Shown here: positions 944 through 9,655 of the stretch, in pieces | How positions within the stretch are numbered: position 1 is the first letter of the stretch | Layout of the letters: each line of letters opens with the position of its first letter | IMG/VR virus record: IMGVR_UViG_2645727635_000010 | Source: a virus | Taxonomy: Duplodnaviria > Heunggongvirae > Uroviricota > Caudoviricetes | Length of the DNA stretch: 9,655 bases | Reading direction: 5' to 3' (one strand) | The notes under the pieces: model-generated | Seen by the model: only the letters and a program-made list of their open reading frames with translations | Told to the model about the DNA's origin: nothing | Database searches by the model: none | Position numbers and translations under genes: made by a program

Positions 944-2776
944 CTACCAAAATCGGGTATAGCCAACATCGTGATTTATATCAATGCCACTGGAGCGTGT
1001 TTCCGTAACCCGCATACCTGATGGCATATTTATAAATGATACCTTGATCTCACCATCAACTTTTGGCGCGGTAGCTTTATTAATCATGAAGGGATTCGAG
1101 CCTGTGGCATCGGAGGCGTTGTTTGCCTGAGCCGGATCCACCGCCGGATAAGGAGTGTATCCCCGCGCCGGTATTCCCGTCCCATAAGCATCATAAGCAC
1201 CCGCGCCCCACTGCGCAGAGTTAATGGCATCGACCGTGTCACCGGAACTGTCGGTAAACCACTCAATAATTGGCTTCAGCTTGTCCCACATATCCTGAAA
1301 CCACTTAACAACCGGCCCCCAGTTATTGATCACCATCCCCAGCGGCGACCAGGCAAAAACCTTCTTAAGAAGTTCCCAACCAGCCTCAAAATAAGGACCA
1401 ATGGTTTCCCAGAGCTTCTTAAAATAAGGTCCGACAACATCCCAGTTAGTGATAATTAATCCCGCAGCCAGAGCAATCGCCGTCGCAATCATGCCAATCG
1501 GCGTCATCGACATAATCCTGCTGACAATACTGATGGCACCGCCAACGCCCATCAATCCCAGTTTCAGAATCGCAAGACCGGCAGCAAGCCCGACGACGCC
1601 GCGAATAACCCGGGGATTTTCATCCGCAAACTTCGTGAATTTTTCCCCCAACACCCCCAGCCATTGCGTGATATTTTTAGCGTCACCAGAAAATGCGCCG
1701 CCAATAGCAGCAAGACCGTTAGTTGCGGTCCCCGTCATTGCCTCCCACAGGTTGGACAGCGTACCAAGCTGAGCCTGAACACGTTTATTCAGGCTGGCCT
1801 GTTTATTCATCTTCTGCTGGATCTGATCGTAGCCATCCTTTCCTTTATCGATCAGGGCATTGACCACCTGAAGGGTTTCGGCATCATCACCAAATATTGC
1901 CTTAAGTACACCTGTTCGCTTAACGTCGGTCAGTTTTCGCAACTTTGCCAGTTGCCTGAACATGTTATCAAGACCGCCAAAACTTCCTTTGCCGTCAGTA
2001 AAATCGAGCTGTACCCCGAGTTTCTGGCGGGCCATGACTTTATTGACGTCCCTGATTTTCTTAACACTTAATCCGGACTGGATAACTTTTCGCAGGGCAT
2101 TACCTGCCGACTCCCCGTTCATCCCCATCTGATCCATCATGACGCTGATGGGGGCAAGGCTCTGTGCAGCCTGAAGACCGTCCTTGTTCACCATCTTCAG
2201 AACAGAACTGGTTTTAGTGAAGAAGGACAACATGTTGGTATCGTCAACGCCCAGATAAAACGCCTTCTGGATAGTGTCGAACAGCCCCATCATGTCTTCT
2301 GACGCCGTTCCGGTAGCATCCTGCATCTTTGCCGCAAACTCAGCAGCCGCTTCCGGTGTTTTTTTCAGTTGTACCGCAAGATAAGCTGTCGCTTTACCCA
2401 CACCACCAAGAATGTTTTCTGCCGGGATCCCCTGACGCACCAGCATCTGCATCATGTTCTGGAAATCAGCCGTTGTACCGGGTAGCTGGTTACCCAGGCC
2501 AATAGCCAGTTTATTGATGTCCTGAAAGCGCTTTCCAACCTCACCGTTCGCATCCATCATGGCAACTTTCAGCCCGGTAGCGGCGTTTTCCTGATCGGCA
2601 TAAGATTTCAGGGAAAGCGTCAGACCCGCAGCCAGTCCGCCACCAAGCGCCAGCCCACCCTGTGACGCTTCTTCCGCCTGGCGTTTAAATCCCCGGATTT
2701 TCTTTTGCATTTTCGACAGCGCGGGAGAAAGCCTGTCGACACCGGTGATCAACGCCTTAAGCTCAAATTCAGCCAT
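944..2776 (-). CDS. Phage tail tape measure protein, 610 aa
   Basis: Long ORF directly downstream of the chaperone/frameshift pair. The N-terminus is charged and helical, the middle is rich in Ala/Gly/Met/Gln, and the C-terminus has Gly-rich hydrophobic segments and W-rich repeats, as in tape measure proteins. Start at 2774..2776 overlaps the end of the frameshift ORF. Confidence 0.9.
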   Translation of the reverse strand: MAEFELKALITGVDRLSPALSKMQKKIRGFKRQAEEASQGGLALGGGLAAGLTLSLKSYADQENAATGLKVAMMDANGEVGKRFQDINKLAIGLGNQLPGTTADFQNMMQMLVRQGIPAENILGGVGKATAYLAVQLKKTPEAAAEFAAKMQDATGTASEDMMGLFDTIQKAFYLGVDDTNMLSFFTKTSSVLKMVNKDGLQAAQSLAPISVMMDQMGMNGESAGNALRKVIQSGLSVKKIRDVNKVMARQKLGVQLDFTDGKGSFGGLDNMFRQLAKLRKLTDVKRTGVLKAIFGDDAETLQVVNALIDKGKDGYDQIQQKMNKQASLNKRVQAQLGTLSNLWEAMTGTATNGLAAIGGAFSGDAKNITQWLGVLGEKFTKFADENPRVIRGVVGLAAGLAILKLGLMGVGGAISIVSRIMSMTPIGMIATAIALAAGLIITNWDVVGPYFKKLWETIGPYFEAGWELLKKVFAWSPLGMVINNWGPVVKWFQDMWDKLKPIIEWFTDSSGDTVDAINSAQWGAGAYDAYGTGIPARGYTPYPAVDPAQANNASDATGSNPFMINKATAPKVDGEIKVSFINMPSGMRVTETRSSGIDINHDVGYTRFW

Positions 2777-2951
2777 GTGTGCGTTTCTCCTGCTCTATCC
2801 TGTTTGCCTGACTGACCAGCAAGGGAATTTCACTGATCGGCATATTCAGCAATTCGAAGGGATTAATGCGCCAGTAGCTGGCGCAGTCAAAGAAGCGATC
2901 AGTGAGGTATTCAGCCGTCAGGCCTGGAGGAAAAAACCAGCCACAAGCCAC
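2769..2951 (-). CDS. -1 frame extension of the tail assembly chaperone (gpGT-like frameshift product; fused span would be 2769..3187)
   Basis: This ORF is in the -1 frame relative to the chaperone and overlaps both the chaperone 3' end and the tape measure start. The minus-strand slippery heptamer T-TTT-TTC (plus-strand GAAAAAA at 2930..2936) sits in the overlap. A -1 slip there would give ...AGFF followed by PPGLTAEYL...RTHG. Confidence 0.7.
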   Translation of the reverse strand: MACGWFFPPGLTAEYLTDRFFDCASYWRINPFELLNMPISEIPLLVSQANRIEQEKRTHG

Positions 2952-3187
2952 GCCGCAGCATTCAGGTCTGCCGGAGACATCTGGTCGACAGAGCTTTGCG
3001 GCACTTTCGCCAGCCGCACAATGTATTTCGACACCACATGCGCCAGAAGTCTGACGGACTCATCCTGATTCATCTGGTAGGGATACCCCAGCTCGCGGAC
3101 ATCTTTCCCGGTGGGCTCATCAAACTCCAGTACGGAGAGTGTCTCGCCATGAGCGGTAATCGGTTTCTTTAACTCAAGCTCTTTCAT
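2918..3187 (-). CDS. Tail assembly chaperone (lambda gpG analogue), 89 aa
   Basis: Small acidic ORF between the tail tube and tape measure genes, the conserved position of the chaperone. Its start overlaps the tube stop (TAATG). The slippery heptamer sits 5 codons before its stop. Confidence 0.8.
   Translation of the reverse strand: MKELELKKPITAHGETLSVLEFDEPTGKDVRELGYPYQMNQDESVRLLAHVVSKYIVRLAKVPQSSVDQMSPADLNAAAWLVAGFFLQA
2930..2936 (-). promoter_or_regulatory. Programmed -1 ribosomal frameshift slippery site (T TTT TTC)
   Basis: X-XXY-YYZ heptamer in the zero frame of the chaperone, located in the overlap with the -1 frame ORF. Conserved chaperone frameshifting ahead of the tape measure gene is established for long-tailed phages. 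Confidence 0.6.
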
Positions 3188-3543: not shown

Positions 3544-5039
3544 TATGCGGACTCCTCTGAATACTGAAGACGGAACTGGTTAACCACGGCAAAGACACGC
3601 AACTGGTTAACATAGTCAGGCGGGAACAGCGTGTTCAGGCGGTTCGGATCGCTGGCATCACGCTCCACAACCAGGTACTGCTTAAACAGTGCGTAGTTTT
3701 CCACGATCCCCGCACGCTCAAGCTGACGGTAGGTTGCCAGCAGTTCCCCTTTGATCACCGCCGGGGTGACAATCGCCTGACCGGGACCAAAGCGGGTACC
3801 GTCACTGGCAAGCTTGTGACGCCCGTACTTACTGGTAATGACGGATTTCAGTTTGCGCAGTACATACGCACTGGTATGCAGAGTCTCACTGTCGAGGTAG
3901 CTGTTATCCGCAACCCCGTAAGCATTTTTCCTGTACGTGGTGACATCACGCTGAATGCGCAGCACCCCGCTTTCGACATACGCCGTTGCCACGCCATGAG
4001 ACAGCAGGGTCTGTTGTTCGGTCATCGTGAACCGTTTCCCCTTCGGCGCAGGCAGCATACCCACCAGCTCACCGGTCTGCGTGGGACGTGCCGGATCGTT
4101 GCGAATAAACACCGCTGCGCGGGCGGTACGGCTTGCCGCCAGTTCGTCGGCAGGCGTCTGGGTCTCTTTTTCGTACCCCGCCAGGGTAATGTGCTGCTGG
4201 TTAAACTGGTCACCTGCGGTCACCAGTTCTGACAGCGTGCCGATCTTTGCCGTATACACATGACCATACAGCTGACGCGCATAGCTCCAGCGACCGCTGG
4301 TATCGTTCATCTCGGTCACCAGCGTGTTAACGGAGGCCGTGTCGTTGAACGGAAGACCGATATAATCAAACGGCTCATCCGCCATTGCAGCCACCGCGCC
4401 GGTGAGAACAGGAGCCCCCGTTCCGGCGGTCCCCGCCGCCACGGCAATCTGTACGCCCGCAGGCAGCACTTCGCCCCCACCAAAGCCGTAGTAATTGAGG
4501 CTGACAGGAATTTCATTCCCGCAAAGCCCCTTATGACGCGCGGTCAGCGTGACCACGCCAGCCGAAGATGAGGCCGTAAACGGCAGGGCCGGAACGGCAT
4601 TAATGGCATCCTGGATACTGCCGGCAATCGTCGCGACGTTATCGCCATTGGTCACCGGTGCCTGCACGCGGGTACGTCCCACATAAACATTCACCGTGCC
4701 GGTTTCGGTTGCCGCCCCGGTCACCGTCAGCGTAACCGTTGCCGCCGCGCCTGTGGCTTCCGGAACGGCAATCACATACAGCTCGCCAAACGGGTCAGTC
4801 TGGCGATAAGCCTCGACCATACGCGCCAGCTGACTTCCCGCACCACAAATCTGGCGTGCATAGTCTGCCGACGGCATCAGTACCAGACTGTTGGCAACAA
4901 TCTCTGCACCGTTATTGGCATGACCAATCAGCAGCGATGCTCCGCTGTCCTGTGCAGTATTCGCCGCCGAGTTATCCATTTCCGCATAAAACAACGGAAC
5001 CAGCGTATTCGACGGAATGGTGTTAAAGCTTATCGTCAT
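3543..5039 (-). CDS. Contractile-tail sheath protein (Mu gpL-like), 498 aa
   Basis: 498-aa ORF directly upstream of the tube gene with an AGGTG Shine-Dalgarno. It is Ala/Gly/Thr/Val-rich, and its size and N-terminus (MTISFNTIPSNTLVPLFYAEMDNS) are consistent with Mu/SfV-type sheath proteins. Confidence 0.9.
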   Translation of the reverse strand: MTISFNTIPSNTLVPLFYAEMDNSAANTAQDSGASLLIGHANNGAEIVANSLVLMPSADYARQICGAGSQLARMVEAYRQTDPFGELYVIAVPEATGAAATVTLTVTGAATETGTVNVYVGRTRVQAPVTNGDNVATIAGSIQDAINAVPALPFTASSSAGVVTLTARHKGLCGNEIPVSLNYYGFGGGEVLPAGVQIAVAAGTAGTGAPVLTGAVAAMADEPFDYIGLPFNDTASVNTLVTEMNDTSGRWSYARQLYGHVYTAKIGTLSELVTAGDQFNQQHITLAGYEKETQTPADELAASRTARAAVFIRNDPARPTQTGELVGMLPAPKGKRFTMTEQQTLLSHGVATAYVESGVLRIQRDVTTYRKNAYGVADNSYLDSETLHTSAYVLRKLKSVITSKYGRHKLASDGTRFGPGQAIVTPAVIKGELLATYRQLERAGIVENYALFKQYLVVERDASDPNRLNTLFPPDYVNQLRVFAVVNQFRLQYSEESA

Positions 5040-5193
5040 CGGTATTCACCTTTTTATTCACGCGCCGGATATCACCCGCGGCTTCACGGCGCAGCCAGTA
5101 GTTGTTCTCGTCAACATTTCGCCCTTCGGCGGGCAAAAGGTCGCCGCGGGCAGGGTCAGGAACTGACCGCCCTTTAACAGGTTTCACAAACAT
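5023..5193 (-). CDS. Small conserved phage protein (DUF2635-like), 56 aa; absent from the ORF track because it is under 60 aa
   Basis: Hand translation of the minus strand from the ATG at 5191..5193 gives MFVKPVKGRSVPDPARGDLLPAEGRNVDENNYWLRREAAGDIRRVNKKVNTDDDKL, with stop at 5023..5025. A GAGGA Shine-Dalgarno sits 5 nt upstream and overlaps the stop of the preceding gene. The 3' end overlaps the sheath start by 17 nt. The family assignment is from memory of a small protein found upstream of sheath genes in Mu-like prophages. Confidence 0.55.
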   Translation of the reverse strand: MFVKPVKGRSVPDPARGDLLPAEGRNVDENNYWLRREAAGDIRRVNKKVNTDDDKL

Positions 5194-5201
5194 GAGGATC
5201 C

Positions 5202-5762
5202 TCAGGAAGGAAGGGTTATTTCGGTGTGATGTTCGATATCGCCGTCAGGCCCGTTACCGGGCTCGAGATAATCAACATCAATCGCCAGCGTTTGCAGTTC
5301 ATCCAGACTGTTCAGATCATCCTGCTGGCGGGTATCGTCTTCAGTCAGCTCGCTGATGACCGAAAAATCGAACTGATAAATCAGCTCATGACGATTCAGA
5401 TCCAGCAGCGTGCCGCCGTCATAGGTAATCGGGTTACCGCACGCCTCCGGGTTCCAGCCCAGCAGAGCCTTAAAGAGCATCTGCCGGACATCGTCCACCA
5501 CATCATACGAGGCAAACTGACCGCGCTCATCACGCCCGTTACTCAGTATGACAACCACGGAGAAACCCTCTTTCAGCTCCTGCCAGTAGTCGGTCTGGCT
5601 TTTGTTTTCTCCCGGAGAATCATCACCCGGTACAACATACGCCGCCGGGAGTCTCAGCTTTCCGACCTCCGGCAGATTTTTGAACTGGGCCGCGCCTGCA
5701 ACCCGGTTTTCAAAATACGGACAGCGGGCACGCAGCGCAGCAATAACAGGCGTCAGTTTCAT
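5202..5762 (-). CDS. Tail completion / tail terminator protein (Mu gp37-like), 186 aa
   Basis: ORF between the neck genes and the sheath gene. Its start overlaps the upstream stop (ATGA). Function is inferred mainly from position and size; the sequence match is a weak recollection. Confidence 0.65.
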   Translation of the reverse strand: MKLTPVIAALRARCPYFENRVAGAAQFKNLPEVGKLRLPAAYVVPGDDSPGENKSQTDYWQELKEGFSVVVILSNGRDERGQFASYDVVDDVRQMLFKALLGWNPEACGNPITYDGGTLLDLNRHELIYQFDFSVISELTEDDTRQQDDLNSLDELQTLAIDVDYLEPGNGPDGDIEHHTEITLPS

Positions 5763-6265
5763 CTGTGTCGTCGCTCCGGCCTCAGTGATTTACGCAATTC
5801 CCGCGCCAGAAAATAGCGTGTCCAGCTGCGGTTCTTTTCAAGAGTTTCCACCATAAAGTTATTACGTGGAGCCAGTCGCCAGCCGCTGCCACCGGATGCA
5901 CCACGATGATGACTACGACGACGCTTTGCTCCTCCCCGGACACCAAAAAACAGAAACGCCGGATAGAAGTCACCAGAGATCATCCGGTTCCCCTTCCCGT
6001 TGCGCTGGTTAGGGGCAATGCGTGTCATAAAACCGGCTCGCTTTTTACTGGCTCTCGGCACCATGTAACCAATCGAACGAGCCAGGCGTCCGGTCTGATA
6101 ACCGGGGTTTTCACCCGGTGCCGACCGCGCACGGCGCATCACCAGCCGACGGGCATCACGCATATGACGCTGCCCAATCGTGACAAACGCCCGCCGGACA
6201 CGGGCACGGTTAAAGCGCATCTCCGCGGGCTGCTGAACATCAACGTGAAAAAAGGGAGTCGCCAT
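5759..6265 (-). CDS. HK97 gp10-like neck / virion morphogenesis protein, 168 aa
   Basis: Very basic, Arg-rich ORF between the adaptor and tail completion genes. GGAGG Shine-Dalgarno 5 nt upstream of the ATG at 6263..6265. Start overlaps the adaptor 3' end by 26 nt. Confidence 0.65.
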   Translation of the reverse strand: MATPFFHVDVQQPAEMRFNRARVRRAFVTIGQRHMRDARRLVMRRARSAPGENPGYQTGRLARSIGYMVPRASKKRAGFMTRIAPNQRNGKGNRMISGDFYPAFLFFGVRGGAKRRRSHHRGASGGSGWRLAPRNNFMVETLEKNRSWTRYFLARELRKSLRPERRHR

Positions 6266-7222: not shown

Positions 7223-8428
7223 TTACGCCACTGCAATCTTCAGCAGTTTGATGGCCTGCGAATCGACCAGCATCCCGCCGGTGCGCTTGGTGGTATAAAA
7301 ACCGACAAACGGTTTATTGGTGTACGGGTCACGCAGAATGCGGGGGCCGATACGGTCAACGATGGTGTAACCCCGTTTGAAGTTACCAAATGCAATGGCT
7401 TTCGCATCAGCGGCGATATCCGGCATCTGTTCGTTTTCAGCGATACCGTAACCCGCCAGAGAGGACGGCTGCCCCAGCTCCAGCCCCGGACGCCACAGAT
7501 AGTTACCCTCGATGTCTTTAAGCAGACGGATGGCAAACAGGCTATTGTTGTTCATCATGAACTTCGCGCCAGTGCGGTGTGCCTTACGCAGCGTGTAAAT
7601 CAGTTTGATAATGGCGTCTGCGGTCACCGCAGTCGCGTCGCCGGATACAATATGCTGAAGTTTGCCGAACGCCCGGACCTTATCGGTTTCATCCGTGGAT
7701 TCATACGCCAGGAACCCTTTCGGCTTCTTGGTACCATCGCCGGTGGTAAAGGCAATTTCTTCCTGTTCGGCAAATTCGGTTGCCAGCTCGCTGTTGATCC
7801 ATGCTTCCACGTTGAAAAAGGCATCATCCAGCATTTTCTGGGTGGCCTGCGGGTTACCGTAGATTTCCCCCATGAAAGGTTCAATCAGGCCCAGTTTTGA
7901 GGTGGCAGTCTGGGAGCGCGCGTCAGTCTCACCAACCCATCCGGAAGCCGTGCCGCCCAGATTCACCAGTTTTTTGTAGTCGGAACCACCAACGGTGATC
8001 ACCGTGGCTTCCTGGCGCATCACCACTTCATCTTTCAGCAGGGTGAGAATGTTGCGATCCAGTGCTTCCGGCACGGCATAGCCGCCGTCTTCATCGGTGC
8101 CCACCTGCAATGCCTTGCGCTCCAGATCGCGCAGACCATCTTCACGGCCTTTACGCAGGAAGCCCACAAACGCTTCTTTATGCTCAGTGGCCAGTTTATT
8201 TTGCGCACCACCTGCCGGACGTTTCAGCTCAAGCAGCTCTTTTTCAAGATCGCTTTTGAGGTTTTCCAGCTCGCTGAGTTTCCCGTTCAGGGTTTCCACC
8301 TGCCCGGCAAGTTTGCCTTTTTCCTGCTCAATCGCATCCACGCGCTTGTCGTTCTTTGCTTTGAAGTCGTCAAACTTCTGCTGCAGCTCCTGCGCGACCT
8401 GTTCGACATCTTTAATATCAACCGCCAT
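7223..8428 (-). CDS. Major capsid protein, HK97 fold, with an N-terminal coiled-coil delta (scaffolding) domain, 401 aa
   Basis: The first ~100 aa are strongly charged and helical (MAVDIKDVEQVAQELQQKFDDFKAKNDKRVDAIEQEKGKLAGQVETLNGKLSELENLKSDLEKELLELK), followed by a body typical of HK97-family capsid proteins. AGGAGA Shine-Dalgarno upstream. The gene directly follows the prohead protease. Confidence 0.92.
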   Translation of the reverse strand: MAVDIKDVEQVAQELQQKFDDFKAKNDKRVDAIEQEKGKLAGQVETLNGKLSELENLKSDLEKELLELKRPAGGAQNKLATEHKEAFVGFLRKGREDGLRDLERKALQVGTDEDGGYAVPEALDRNILTLLKDEVVMRQEATVITVGGSDYKKLVNLGGTASGWVGETDARSQTATSKLGLIEPFMGEIYGNPQATQKMLDDAFFNVEAWINSELATEFAEQEEIAFTTGDGTKKPKGFLAYESTDETDKVRAFGKLQHIVSGDATAVTADAIIKLIYTLRKAHRTGAKFMMNNNSLFAIRLLKDIEGNYLWRPGLELGQPSSLAGYGIAENEQMPDIAADAKAIAFGNFKRGYTIVDRIGPRILRDPYTNKPFVGFYTTKRTGGMLVDSQAIKLLKIAVA

Positions 8429-8442
8429 CGTATTTCTCCTGA

Positions 8443-8592
8443 TTAGAAGTTCAGATTTTTCAGTGCATTCAGTGCAGAGCCCACATCCTCAGCGTCGCGC
8501 AGGGACAGTGCGCCATAGCCCCCGGCCATGAATGCTTTGGCCTGGGTACGGGAGAGTCCGACATCACGCAGGACTCTTTCGATTTTTTTCTG
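8443..8592 (-). other. In-frame continuation of the protease reading frame after the TAA at 8593..8595 (49 codons); likely the C-terminal segment of an ancestral full-length protease
   Basis: Hand translation in the same frame as the protease gives QKKIERVLRDVGLSRTQAKAFMAGGYGALSLRDAEDVGSALNALKNLNF, ending at TAA 8443..8445. Protease plus extension is about 215 codons, close to the usual length of HK97-family proteases. Confidence 0.5.
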
Positions 8593-9093
8593 TTAGGGGA
8601 TTTCCCCGCGGGCCAGTGCGTTCTTGACGTCGCTGATCCGCGCCTCGTCGTTAGACGGGAACGTCACCAGGCTGACTTCCCAGAGGTCGATTTCTTTCAG
8701 CAGAAAGGCTTCTTTGCTCCGGTCGTATTCCCAGTCTTTCAGGACGTACCCAATAGAAAGGCCGGTTAACGAACCGGCCTTCATGTGTGCATGTGCGCGT
8801 TTTGCGAGGGGATCATCATCAATAAGCAACCGTCCCCTGACGTAAAGCCCGACATCGTCTTCCTTCATTTCAGTGTAAACACCGATGGGTTCATCCATGC
8901 GGTGCTGCCAGAGCAGCGCAGGTAACGCTTTTCTGTCACTCCACGCCCGCAGGGAAGCAGCAAATGCCCCGGACATCACCACATCATCGTGGCTGTCCTT
9001 TACACCAAAGACGGAGCCATACCCTTCAAACTCACCGGAGTCACTGACAGATTTCAGACTCAGCGGTACATCAAGACGTTGTTTCGTCTGCAT
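8593..9093 (-). CDS. Prohead maturation protease (HK97 family), ending at an in-frame TAA; the likely start is the ATG at 9091..9093 rather than the listed 9129
   Basis: The motif EGYGSVFGVKDSHDDVVMSGAFAASL is typical of HK97-family prohead proteases. The ATG at 9091..9093 has an AAGGA Shine-Dalgarno 8 nt upstream; the ATG at 9127..9129 has none and would overlap the portal gene by 59 nt. Confidence 0.8.
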   Translation of the reverse strand: MQTKQRLDVPLSLKSVSDSGEFEGYGSVFGVKDSHDDVVMSGAFAASLRAWSDRKALPALLWQHRMDEPIGVYTEMKEDDVGLYVRGRLLIDDDPLAKRAHAHMKAGSLTGLSIGYVLKDWEYDRSKEAFLLKEIDLWEVSLVTFPSNDEARISDVKNALARGEIP

Positions 9094-9655
9094 TGGCGTT
9101 ATCCTTCTGCTTACCGGCTTTACTGCCATCGGAGGGTTCCGTGGTCATGTTCATCGGTGTGAGATAGACATCACCACCGGGACGCGGATTCATATCTTCC
9201 AGGTCGCGGCAGTCATTGGGAGAGTAAATTCCCCAGTTAATCCCGGTGGCGTAGGCTTCAAAACGGGACTTCATATCCCCGCGCAGTAACGCCCCGGCGT
9301 TAAATTTGGCGTAATAAACGCCCTGCTTACTTTTTCGTACCAGTCCGGTGTTGATCCGCTGCTCAATGCGGGTCAGATACGGCACCAGTGAATAGTTGAT
9401 AAATCCCAGCCCCAGCTCTTCGATATTGTTGAAGGTGGCGCGATCGGTGTTCTGCACCATGTGCAACGGCACCCGGAACAGACGACAGATTTCTTCAAGC
9501 TGAAACTTGCGGGTTTCCAGGAACTGGCTGTCCTCGGCGTTCAGCGCCATCGACTTCCAGTCCAGCCCCATCTCAAGGATCATCGGGCGGTGAGCATTGC
9601 CAAGCCCGGTGTGACGCTCCTCAAAATCTTTCTTCAGGCGCTCATAAGCCTGATC
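9071..9655 (-). CDS. Portal protein (HK97 family), C-terminal part; the 5' end lies beyond the window
   Basis: The frame stays open from the listed ATG at 9583 to the window edge (hand translation of 9584..9655 continues upstream as DQAYERLKKDFEERHTGLGNAHRP). Stop at 9071..9073. Its position directly upstream of the protease and capsid genes matches HK97-type head modules. Confidence 0.85.
   Translation of the reverse strand, partial: DQAYERLKKDFEERHTGLGNAHRPMILEMGLDWKSMALNAEDSQFLETRKFQLEEICRLFRVPLHMVQNTDRATFNNIEELGLGFINYSLVPYLTRIEQRINTGLVRKSKQGVYYAKFNAGALLRGDMKSRFEAYATGINWGIYSPNDCRDLEDMNPRPGGDVYLTPMNMTTEPSDGSKAGKQKDNANADETTS

Follow-up and report, generated by a model that had tools for sequence, protein, structure and literature searches.

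A single-base G>T nonsense mutation very probably truncates the HK97-family prohead protease gene of an Escherichia coli prophage, leaving an ordinary pseudogene in a decaying prophage with a stop codon that is neither conserved nor programmed. The window, by which is meant the whole stretch of 9,655 nt that was analysed, is the reverse complement of contig JHRD01000098.1 (assembly GCA_001265315.1) and corresponds to the head-tail module of an SfI/SfII/SfIV/ST64B-like myovirus. Within this module the protease is read as far as the end of its catalytic domain, where an ochre codon separates it from a C-terminal tail that is present in all of the relatives aligned. The lesion is a nonsense allele of a well-known gene; it belongs to ordinary prophage decay and is not novel.

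The protease gene and its surroundings

All genes of the window are encoded on the minus strand, in the order portal (3' part), protease, major capsid protein, head-tail connectors, tail terminator, sheath, tube, tail assembly chaperone, tape measure and a 176-aa protein. The original prediction held that the protease reading frame ends at an ochre codon, that the same frame then stays open for 49 codons up to a second TAA just ahead of the ribosome-binding site of the capsid gene, and that the combined length is about 215 codons. These coordinates are confirmed (Table 1). The second TAA is followed by TC, the AGGAG of the capsid gene, and the capsid ATG (8428..8426), with 14 nt between the end of the protease gene and the capsid gene. 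Two starts can be considered for the protease. An upstream ATG at 9129 would give a truncated ORF of 178 codons and a conceptual full length of 228; the ATG at 9093, which is better supported in that AAGGA lies 8 nt upstream and PGAP places the start there in relatives, gives a conceptual full length of 216 codons, in line with the predicted total. In this 216-aa numbering the replaced residue is Glu167. With the stop at codon 167, the last 50 residues of all relatives are missing from the product of the window.

Table 1. Features of the protease locus and of the contig end, in window coordinates
Feature	Coordinates	Strand	Basis or remark
Portal gene, 3' part	9071..9655	-	Leaves the window; overlaps the protease start; PF04860 in relatives
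Truncated prohead protease CDS, 166 codons	8596..9093	-	ORF list; entire catalytic domain inside
GGGGAAATCCCC, 12 bp directly 5' of the mutated base	8596..8607	-	ISEc60 target-site duplication in related prophages
Premature ochre TAA	8593..8595	-	On the coding strand, the G of GAA has become T at 8595 (A on the + strand)
Orphaned 49-codon C-terminal tail, QKKIERVLRDVGLSRTQAKAFMAGGYGALSLRDAEDVGSALNALKNLNF	8446..8592	-	Nucleotide identity and tblastn
Natural TAA of the full-length protease	8443..8445	-	Annotated CDS end in 7/7 relatives
Major capsid protein gene, 401 aa, intact	7223..8428	-	PF05065 Phage_capsid; own AGGAG at 8436..8440
'DNA circularization protein' tail gene remnant, ~54 first codons	260..97	-	Interrupted by IS2
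IS2 terminal 96 bp (contig end)	1..96	.	100% matches annotated 'IS3-like element IS2 family transposase'

Separate synthesis of the tail by re-initiation was considered and rejected: behind the premature stop, the first in-frame start that could have a plausible ribosome-binding site is Met-22 of the tail.

The capsid protein encoded immediately downstream is presumed to be the substrate of the protease. Its N-terminus is a coiled-coil scaffold (delta-like) region, in which about the first 70 residues are, as judged by eye, charged and heptad-like.

A second lesion is found at the other end of the window. There the terminal 96 bp of an IS2 element, which has 100% matches in 4,746 of 5,426 E. 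coli genomes, form the end of the contig, and homology to the prophage begins at position 97. The tail gene that is interrupted in this way, annotated as 'DNA circularization protein', is intact in sequences L008 and L021, where it measures 1,329 nt. Thus, the 9.6 kb contain two inactivating lesions, the nonsense codon in the protease gene and the IS2 in the tail gene. The remaining 12 complete genes of the window are intact, each being as long as its counterpart in L008; consequently, the decay of the prophage must be called modest.

Comparison across the premature stop

An 801-nt query spanning the gene finds matches in approximately 1,090 of 5,426 complete E. coli genomes. Its nucleotide identity is 97-99.5% to phages SfI, SfII, SfIV, phi467 and ST64B, and 74-82% to phiP27 and to Klebsiella and Yersinia phages. 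Seven relatives were aligned across the stop: SfIV, ST64B, E. coli 2014C-3075, phiP27, ETEC6, Klebsiella ST101-KPC2phi6.3 and Yersinia YeP1. All seven are colinear with the window on both sides of the stop, and all carry a sense codon at the stop position, namely GAA in SfIV, ST64B and E. coli 2014C-3075, GAT in phiP27 and ETEC6, and TCC in the Klebsiella and Yersinia phages. Their annotated proteases are 216-228 aa long and end 14 nt before the capsid gene. Because the relatives are colinear and have a sense codon at this place, the lesion can be described as one G>T substitution that changes Glu167 to ochre. The original prediction had proposed just such a single-base nonsense mutation in an HK97-family protease gene, to be checked by aligning the conceptual read-through protein with its homologues, and the alignment supports it.

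The closest counterpart with a name is the protease of SfI, SfII, SfIV and ST64B (Sb5), designated 'HK97 family phage prohead protease' by PGAP (WP_001193631.1). It is the same gene, in the same portal-protease-capsid order, and the sequences of its catalytic domain and tail are identical to those of the window apart from the stop. However, the genes of these phages read GAA at this codon and yield products of 216-228 aa, whereas the copy in the window halts at codon 167.

Family assignment and domain limits

Curated models recognize the truncated product and the conceptual full-length product alike as members of the HK97 family of prohead serine proteases. The Pfam model PF04586 (Peptidase_S78) covers residues 14-159 of 216 (E=1e-31), scoring 110.7 bits with the conceptual full-length protein and 111.5 bits with the 178-aa truncated ORF against a cut-off of 21. 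The equivalog model TIGR01543 (proheadase_HK97) covers residues 20-159, aligned to model positions 1-141 of 142, and gives 158-159 bits with either product against a cut-off of 59. The gene order also agrees with the family, the protease lying between the portal gene (PF04860) and a capsid gene (PF05065) with a scaffold domain. A search of solved structures by sequence found no relevant homologue.

Since both models end at residue 159, the stop falls after the catalytic domain. Codon 167 is a variable linker position, occupied by E, D or S in the relatives, and lies just before the conserved tail; the candidate catalytic motifs that can be read from the sequence, DSHDD (residue 33), GLSIGY (residue 111) and LWEVSLV (residue 137), are all upstream of it. 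What sets the product of the window apart from a complete protein of the family is the C-terminal tail, which is lost at codon 167. As judged from these models and alignments, the gene is a pseudogene or a truncated allele of the family.

Occurrence of the ochre allele

The frequency of the allele was assessed with 31-mers designed such that every 28-nt megablast seed is forced to include the mutated base. The 31-mer with TAA has no match in 5,426 complete E. coli genomes; the control 31-mer with GAA is found in 975 of these genomes, at 1,102 places. An exact search with a TAA 40-mer gave no match in GTDB species representatives, IMG/VR or JGI metagenomes. Only an exact-protein index revealed further carriers of this T, namely three assemblies: GCA_001265295.1 (L013), that of SRR21136865 by Logan (L017), and one from an ENA metagenome (L015). 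Full-length 216-aa variants, for their part, are present on more than 1,000 contigs each. Two other protein lookups are to be read with care. The 178-aa ORF from ATG 9129 retrieves only a Salmonella contig that is cut at its end and does not carry the TAA allele, and the count for the exact 166-aa product, '21 contigs / 47 blocks', overstates the frequency of the allele, because many of these entries are ISEc60 junctions, in which a TGA of the IS end serves as the stop, or ends of contigs.

The carriers of the TAA allele represent three haplotypes that are separated by 70-94 differences over 8-9.5 kb (0.75-1.1%), yet within the portal-protease segment they differ by only 2-3 nt in 1,250. The closest relative of the window haplotype, L020, has 17 differences in 5,095 and retains GAA at the codon; it is also the sole other contig in the collection that encodes exactly the same capsid protein. 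Codon changes that are private to the window comprise 7 synonymous and 5 non-synonymous ones. As most of them are synonymous, the haplotypes appear to have diverged under selection, before the inactivation. Three haplotypes are not expected for a recent neutral mutation, and their existence suggests recurrence, recombination or some degree of persistence. The allele may have arisen once, with the downstream genes recombining afterwards, or the mutation may have recurred.

Co-resident prophages with gene conversion were also considered for the occurrence of TAA on two haplotypes from one study. The overlaps between the ends of L013 and L014 comprise 482 and 915 identical nt, which argues against one shared de Bruijn-graph assembly.

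It could also be imagined that the ochre allele persists or recurs for a reason, either as part of a phage that is viable through leakiness, by trace readthrough or a double slip of the ribosome, or through an ISEc60 hot spot at GGGGAAATCCCC. Either one would explain why a rare nonsense allele is present on three haplotypes that are about 1% apart, and under leaky viability a few encapsidated protease molecules might suffice. Nevertheless, the chance that the allele persists or recurs in such a way is judged to be slim.

The hot spot deserves a closer description, as it bears on how the mutation arose. In L010, ISEc60 (the name is taken from annotation) is flanked by direct repeats of the 12-mer; in L018 the element sits at the same place in the opposite orientation. 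The mutated base is the first base after the 12-mer, and both ends of ISEc60 begin with T. Conceivably, then, the T is the footprint of a near-precise excision of ISEc60, in which a slipped nascent strand takes the first base of the element along into the second of the two 12-bp target repeats and creates CCCC-T-AACAG. In favour of such an event, the element inserts at exactly this 12-mer in both orientations, CCCC-T is the sequence at its junctions, and the mutated base comes first after the duplication; the event would also account for recurrence on three haplotypes. However, the agreement is no more than a coincidence at the level of sequence, the insertions found all belong to a 95%-identical sublineage and not to the TAA haplotypes, and full-length ISEc60 occurs in only 15 of the 5,426 complete genomes. 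As an account of the origin of the T, and of nothing else, excision is improbable.

Another mutational route that was tried, correction of a quasi-palindrome by template switching, was rejected, as G>T breaks the CGGGG/CCCCG stem instead of perfecting it.

It might also be that G is the true base and that the T is an artefact of sequencing or assembly, a consensus error and perhaps a systematic one beside the quasi-palindrome GGGGAAATCCCC. The absence of the allele from all 5,426 complete genomes, with sightings confined to short-read drafts and metagenomes, fits this idea, and recurrence on different haplotypes is a pattern that systematic errors can give; moreover, several contigs end 0-2 nt from the site. 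Against this, two independent data sets, an NCBI draft and the Logan assembly of another run (L017), have both yielded the L013 haplotype with its T and are identical over 5,864 nt, and the contig of the window is recorded in two samples. Thousands of assemblies that share the same local sequence call G. For the contigs that end here, an IS insertion, or co-resident prophages whose sequences part at the site, is the better explanation. Three other independent assemblies have this T too, which makes a random sequencing error, the alternative listed originally, unlikely. An artefact of any kind is thus very doubtful. The TAA appears to be a real, although rare, allele, with both random and systematic error unlikely given the recurrence of the base.

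Is the stop bypassed by design?

The other alternative named at the outset was programmed readthrough. In its wider form, recoding would produce some full-length protease together with the truncated one, either by readthrough of the ochre codon or by two slips of the ribosome, +1 at CCC_UAA and then -1 at A_AAA_AAA, five nucleotides further on. In theory this double shift restores the frame after four codons (...EIP-NRKK-IERVL...) and gives a protein of wild-type length. A proline before a stop codon slows termination and favours SsrA tagging, and proline is the residue that precedes the stop here. Of the stop codons, however, UAA is the one read through least readily in E. coli, and no tRNA or suppressor gene is present in the window.

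The distribution of the stop bears on this question. A programmed site would be expected in relatives, but none of the seven aligned relatives has the stop, each of them having a sense codon instead, and among the 975 complete E. coli genomes with the locus not one has TAA. A stop that is shared by no relative is not a programmed readthrough site, and this alternative is rejected. Nor does the flanking sequence offer a dedicated stimulatory context: the flanks of the stop are identical to those of the wild type that has no stop. Since CCC and A7 already exist in these wild-type genes without a stop, and the A7 is lost in the phiP27, Klebsiella and Yersinia relatives, nothing has evolved around the stop. 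On the sequences compared, there is no sign of selection for a double-slip bypass. Programmed recoding is therefore regarded as highly improbable.

The orphaned tail

If the stop is a simple nonsense mutation, the codons that follow it should still look like those of a protease, and they do. Over the 147 nt behind the stop, the window is identical to the 3' end of the intact protease gene in SfIV and in an E. coli prophage, and the 49 codons are 100% identical to the intact SfI, SfII and SfIV proteases. A tblastn search finds the tail peptide in 34 phage records, at the C-terminus of annotated prohead proteases and with identities of 49-100%; these phages have as hosts Escherichia, Shigella, Salmonella, Klebsiella, Yersinia, Pseudomonas and Idiomarinaceae, and it is the protease of the Idiomarinaceae phage that is 49% identical. 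Compared with phiP27, 19 codons of the tail differ, 14 of them synonymously and 5 non-synonymously, and the core of the tail, IERVLRDVGLSRTQAKAFMA, is invariant in the seven aligned relatives although its DNA varies. By this pattern of substitution, the 49 downstream codons are under purifying selection in the relatives. The tail of the window itself is still 100% identical to that of intact genes; measured against the divergence of the gene, the lesion must therefore be recent.

It would have counted against a nonsense mutation if homologous proteases ended at the same stop and the next 150 nt were non-coding in relatives; instead, the downstream codons of the relatives are coding. That the protease of this lineage naturally ends at 8593, with the 49 open codons as a chance frame in a spacer, has in its favour the existence of the stop and the fact that the truncated product passes the family models, but none of the seven annotated relatives ends there, the 147 nt are coding sequence in intact relatives, and a tail conserved as protein as far as the Idiomarinaceae phage, with mostly synonymous substitutions, is not a spacer; by these comparisons the notion is refuted, and its probability is close to nil.

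Predicted consequences for head maturation

On the preferred reading, a nonsense mutation in the protease gene, GAA at codon 167 is changed to ochre by the G>T at 8595 on the minus strand, so that translation ends directly behind the catalytic domain and the conserved 49-residue tail is not made. The 166-aa product, which ends in proline, would be a free catalytic domain that, by analogy, may still be catalytically competent. If HK97 gp4 and an amber mutant of Salmonella phage SPN3US are a guide, the truncated enzyme would probably be left out of the assembling proheads; in that case, the N-terminal scaffold domain of the capsid protein would be left uncleaved, and heads would stall without maturation. 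Basal ochre readthrough or the double slip could restore traces of the full-length protein.

In HK97, the C-terminal part of gp4 reportedly targets the enzyme into the prohead, a result said to come from Duda, Oh and Hendrix in 2013. The protease of the window is like gp4 (S78, TIGR01543) in family, as judged by the models, in gene order, and in being followed by a capsid protein whose N-terminus is a scaffold domain. It also shares the layout of a catalytic domain and then a C-terminal tail, and by homology the tail would be needed for encapsidation in the group to which the window belongs, in keeping with the packaging role that the original prediction gave to this segment. About 60 copies of the HK97 protease are co-assembled in Prohead I, and the enzyme then removes the N-terminal scaffold domain of the capsid protein (PMC12749128).

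The SPN3US mutant 245(am66) offers a parallel documented by experiment, as a nonsense codon in its gp245 removes part of the C-terminal region of the protease, as in the window (PMC7411985). This mutant keeps all of its catalytic residues; in the window, the stop lies downstream of the candidate catalytic motifs. The mutant protease is active in vitro but absent from proheads; the head proteins stay uncleaved, and no viable phage is produced (PMC7411985). However, gp245 belongs to a jumbo phage and is a T4 gp21-like protease that docks to another type of prohead core, and 245(am66) is a laboratory mutant (PMC7411985).

Place within prophage decay

The combination of a nonsense codon in one structural gene with an IS2 in another is the type of decay that is found in cryptic prophages of E. 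coli and Shigella. Since the IS2 in the tail gene already makes the prophage defective, the protease lesion can be understood as neutral pseudogenisation in a decaying prophage. In annotation, the gene is best labelled a pseudogene or truncated allele, and the prophage best scored as defective, with two lesions. A natural allele that separates the catalytic domain from the conserved tail could also provide a ready-made test of whether the tail acts as the encapsidation signal in the SfI/ST64B group. The only feature that distinguishes this case from the usual decay of cryptic prophages is the presence of the same nonsense allele on three haplotypes, and that it should recur on several of them, next to an ISEc60 hot spot, is a small curiosity of prophage decay.

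The premature stop and IS elements in the protease gene

The identical, rare TAA allele of the prohead protease gene is carried by three prophage haplotypes that lie 0.75-1.1% apart (the TAA-bearing contigs L013, L015 and L017 versus the window, L014), and the nearest relative of the window, L020, has GAA at the protease codon. A single origin followed by recombination, recurrent mutation, or the footprint of an IS excision are all possible origins of the TAA.

Next to this codon, within the protease gene, lies a 12-mer (see table) into which ISEc60 inserts repeatedly, making it a hot spot for this element. In L010 (positions 4836-6151), a related contig from E. coli LT-68, ISEc60 is flanked on both sides by a 12-bp duplication of GGGGAAATCCCC. 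A second related contig, L018, contains ISEc60 at the same 12-mer, in the orientation opposite to that of L010, and the L010 junction is seen again in L019 and in three similar Logan contigs. A TGA supplied by the end of ISEc60 yields a protease product of 166 aa, the same as that of the TAA allele.

Because four unrelated short-read contigs (L009, L011, L012 and L016) end 0-2 nt from the mutated codon (equivalent to window ~8594-8596), the data suggest an assembly fork at codon 167; the terminal sequences of contigs stopping here are …ATCCCC, …CCCCG and …CCCCGA. Such a fork could be caused by an IS insertion, or could arise where prophages residing in one host part in sequence, at this boundary between domains.

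Features of the window
Feature	Position	Strand	Remarks
IS2, terminal 96 bp	1-96 (junction 96/97)		contig end
"DNA circularization protein" (PF07157) tail gene remnant	97-260	minus	interrupted by IS2
60-aa ORF overlapping chaperone ORF	2769-2951	minus	upstream of tape measure gene
Tail assembly chaperone ORF, 89 aa	2918-3187	minus	
phrog_22327 match	8446-8665		protease residues 143-216
12-mer GGGGAAATCCCC in protease gene	8596-8607	minus	ISEc60 (IS4-like) target

Annotation of the protease gene

The 74 C-terminal residues of the protease coincide exactly with a match (E=2e-51) to the PHROG family phrog_22327, which is 74 aa long and annotated "unknown function". Given this exact coverage, the C-terminal fragment must have been called as a separate ORF in some phage records. 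In six RefSeq phage genomes (NC_022749, NC_021857, NC_027339, NC_004313, NC_003356 and NC_031940), the protease-gene feature (equivalent to window 8400-9200) is listed twice and labelled "major head protein", while the GenBank originals label the same gene prohead protease; the RefSeq name is likely an annotation mislabel.

Lesions and gene layout in the tail module

The insertion of IS2 in a tail gene is a second inactivating lesion of the window prophage; the PF07157 gene is whole (442 aa) in the related prophage contigs L008 and L021. In L013 and L017, the tail terminator gene has a 4-nt deletion at its 3' end (L014 4442-4445; window ~5211-5214), altering the end of the protein, which is 194 aa rather than 186 aa. 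This deletion may be a further lesion of their TAA-bearing haplotype.

Within window 2769-3187 (minus strand), the chaperone ORF is followed by the overlapping smaller ORF and then by the tape measure gene. Such an arrangement usually goes with programmed -1 frameshifting in tail chaperones.
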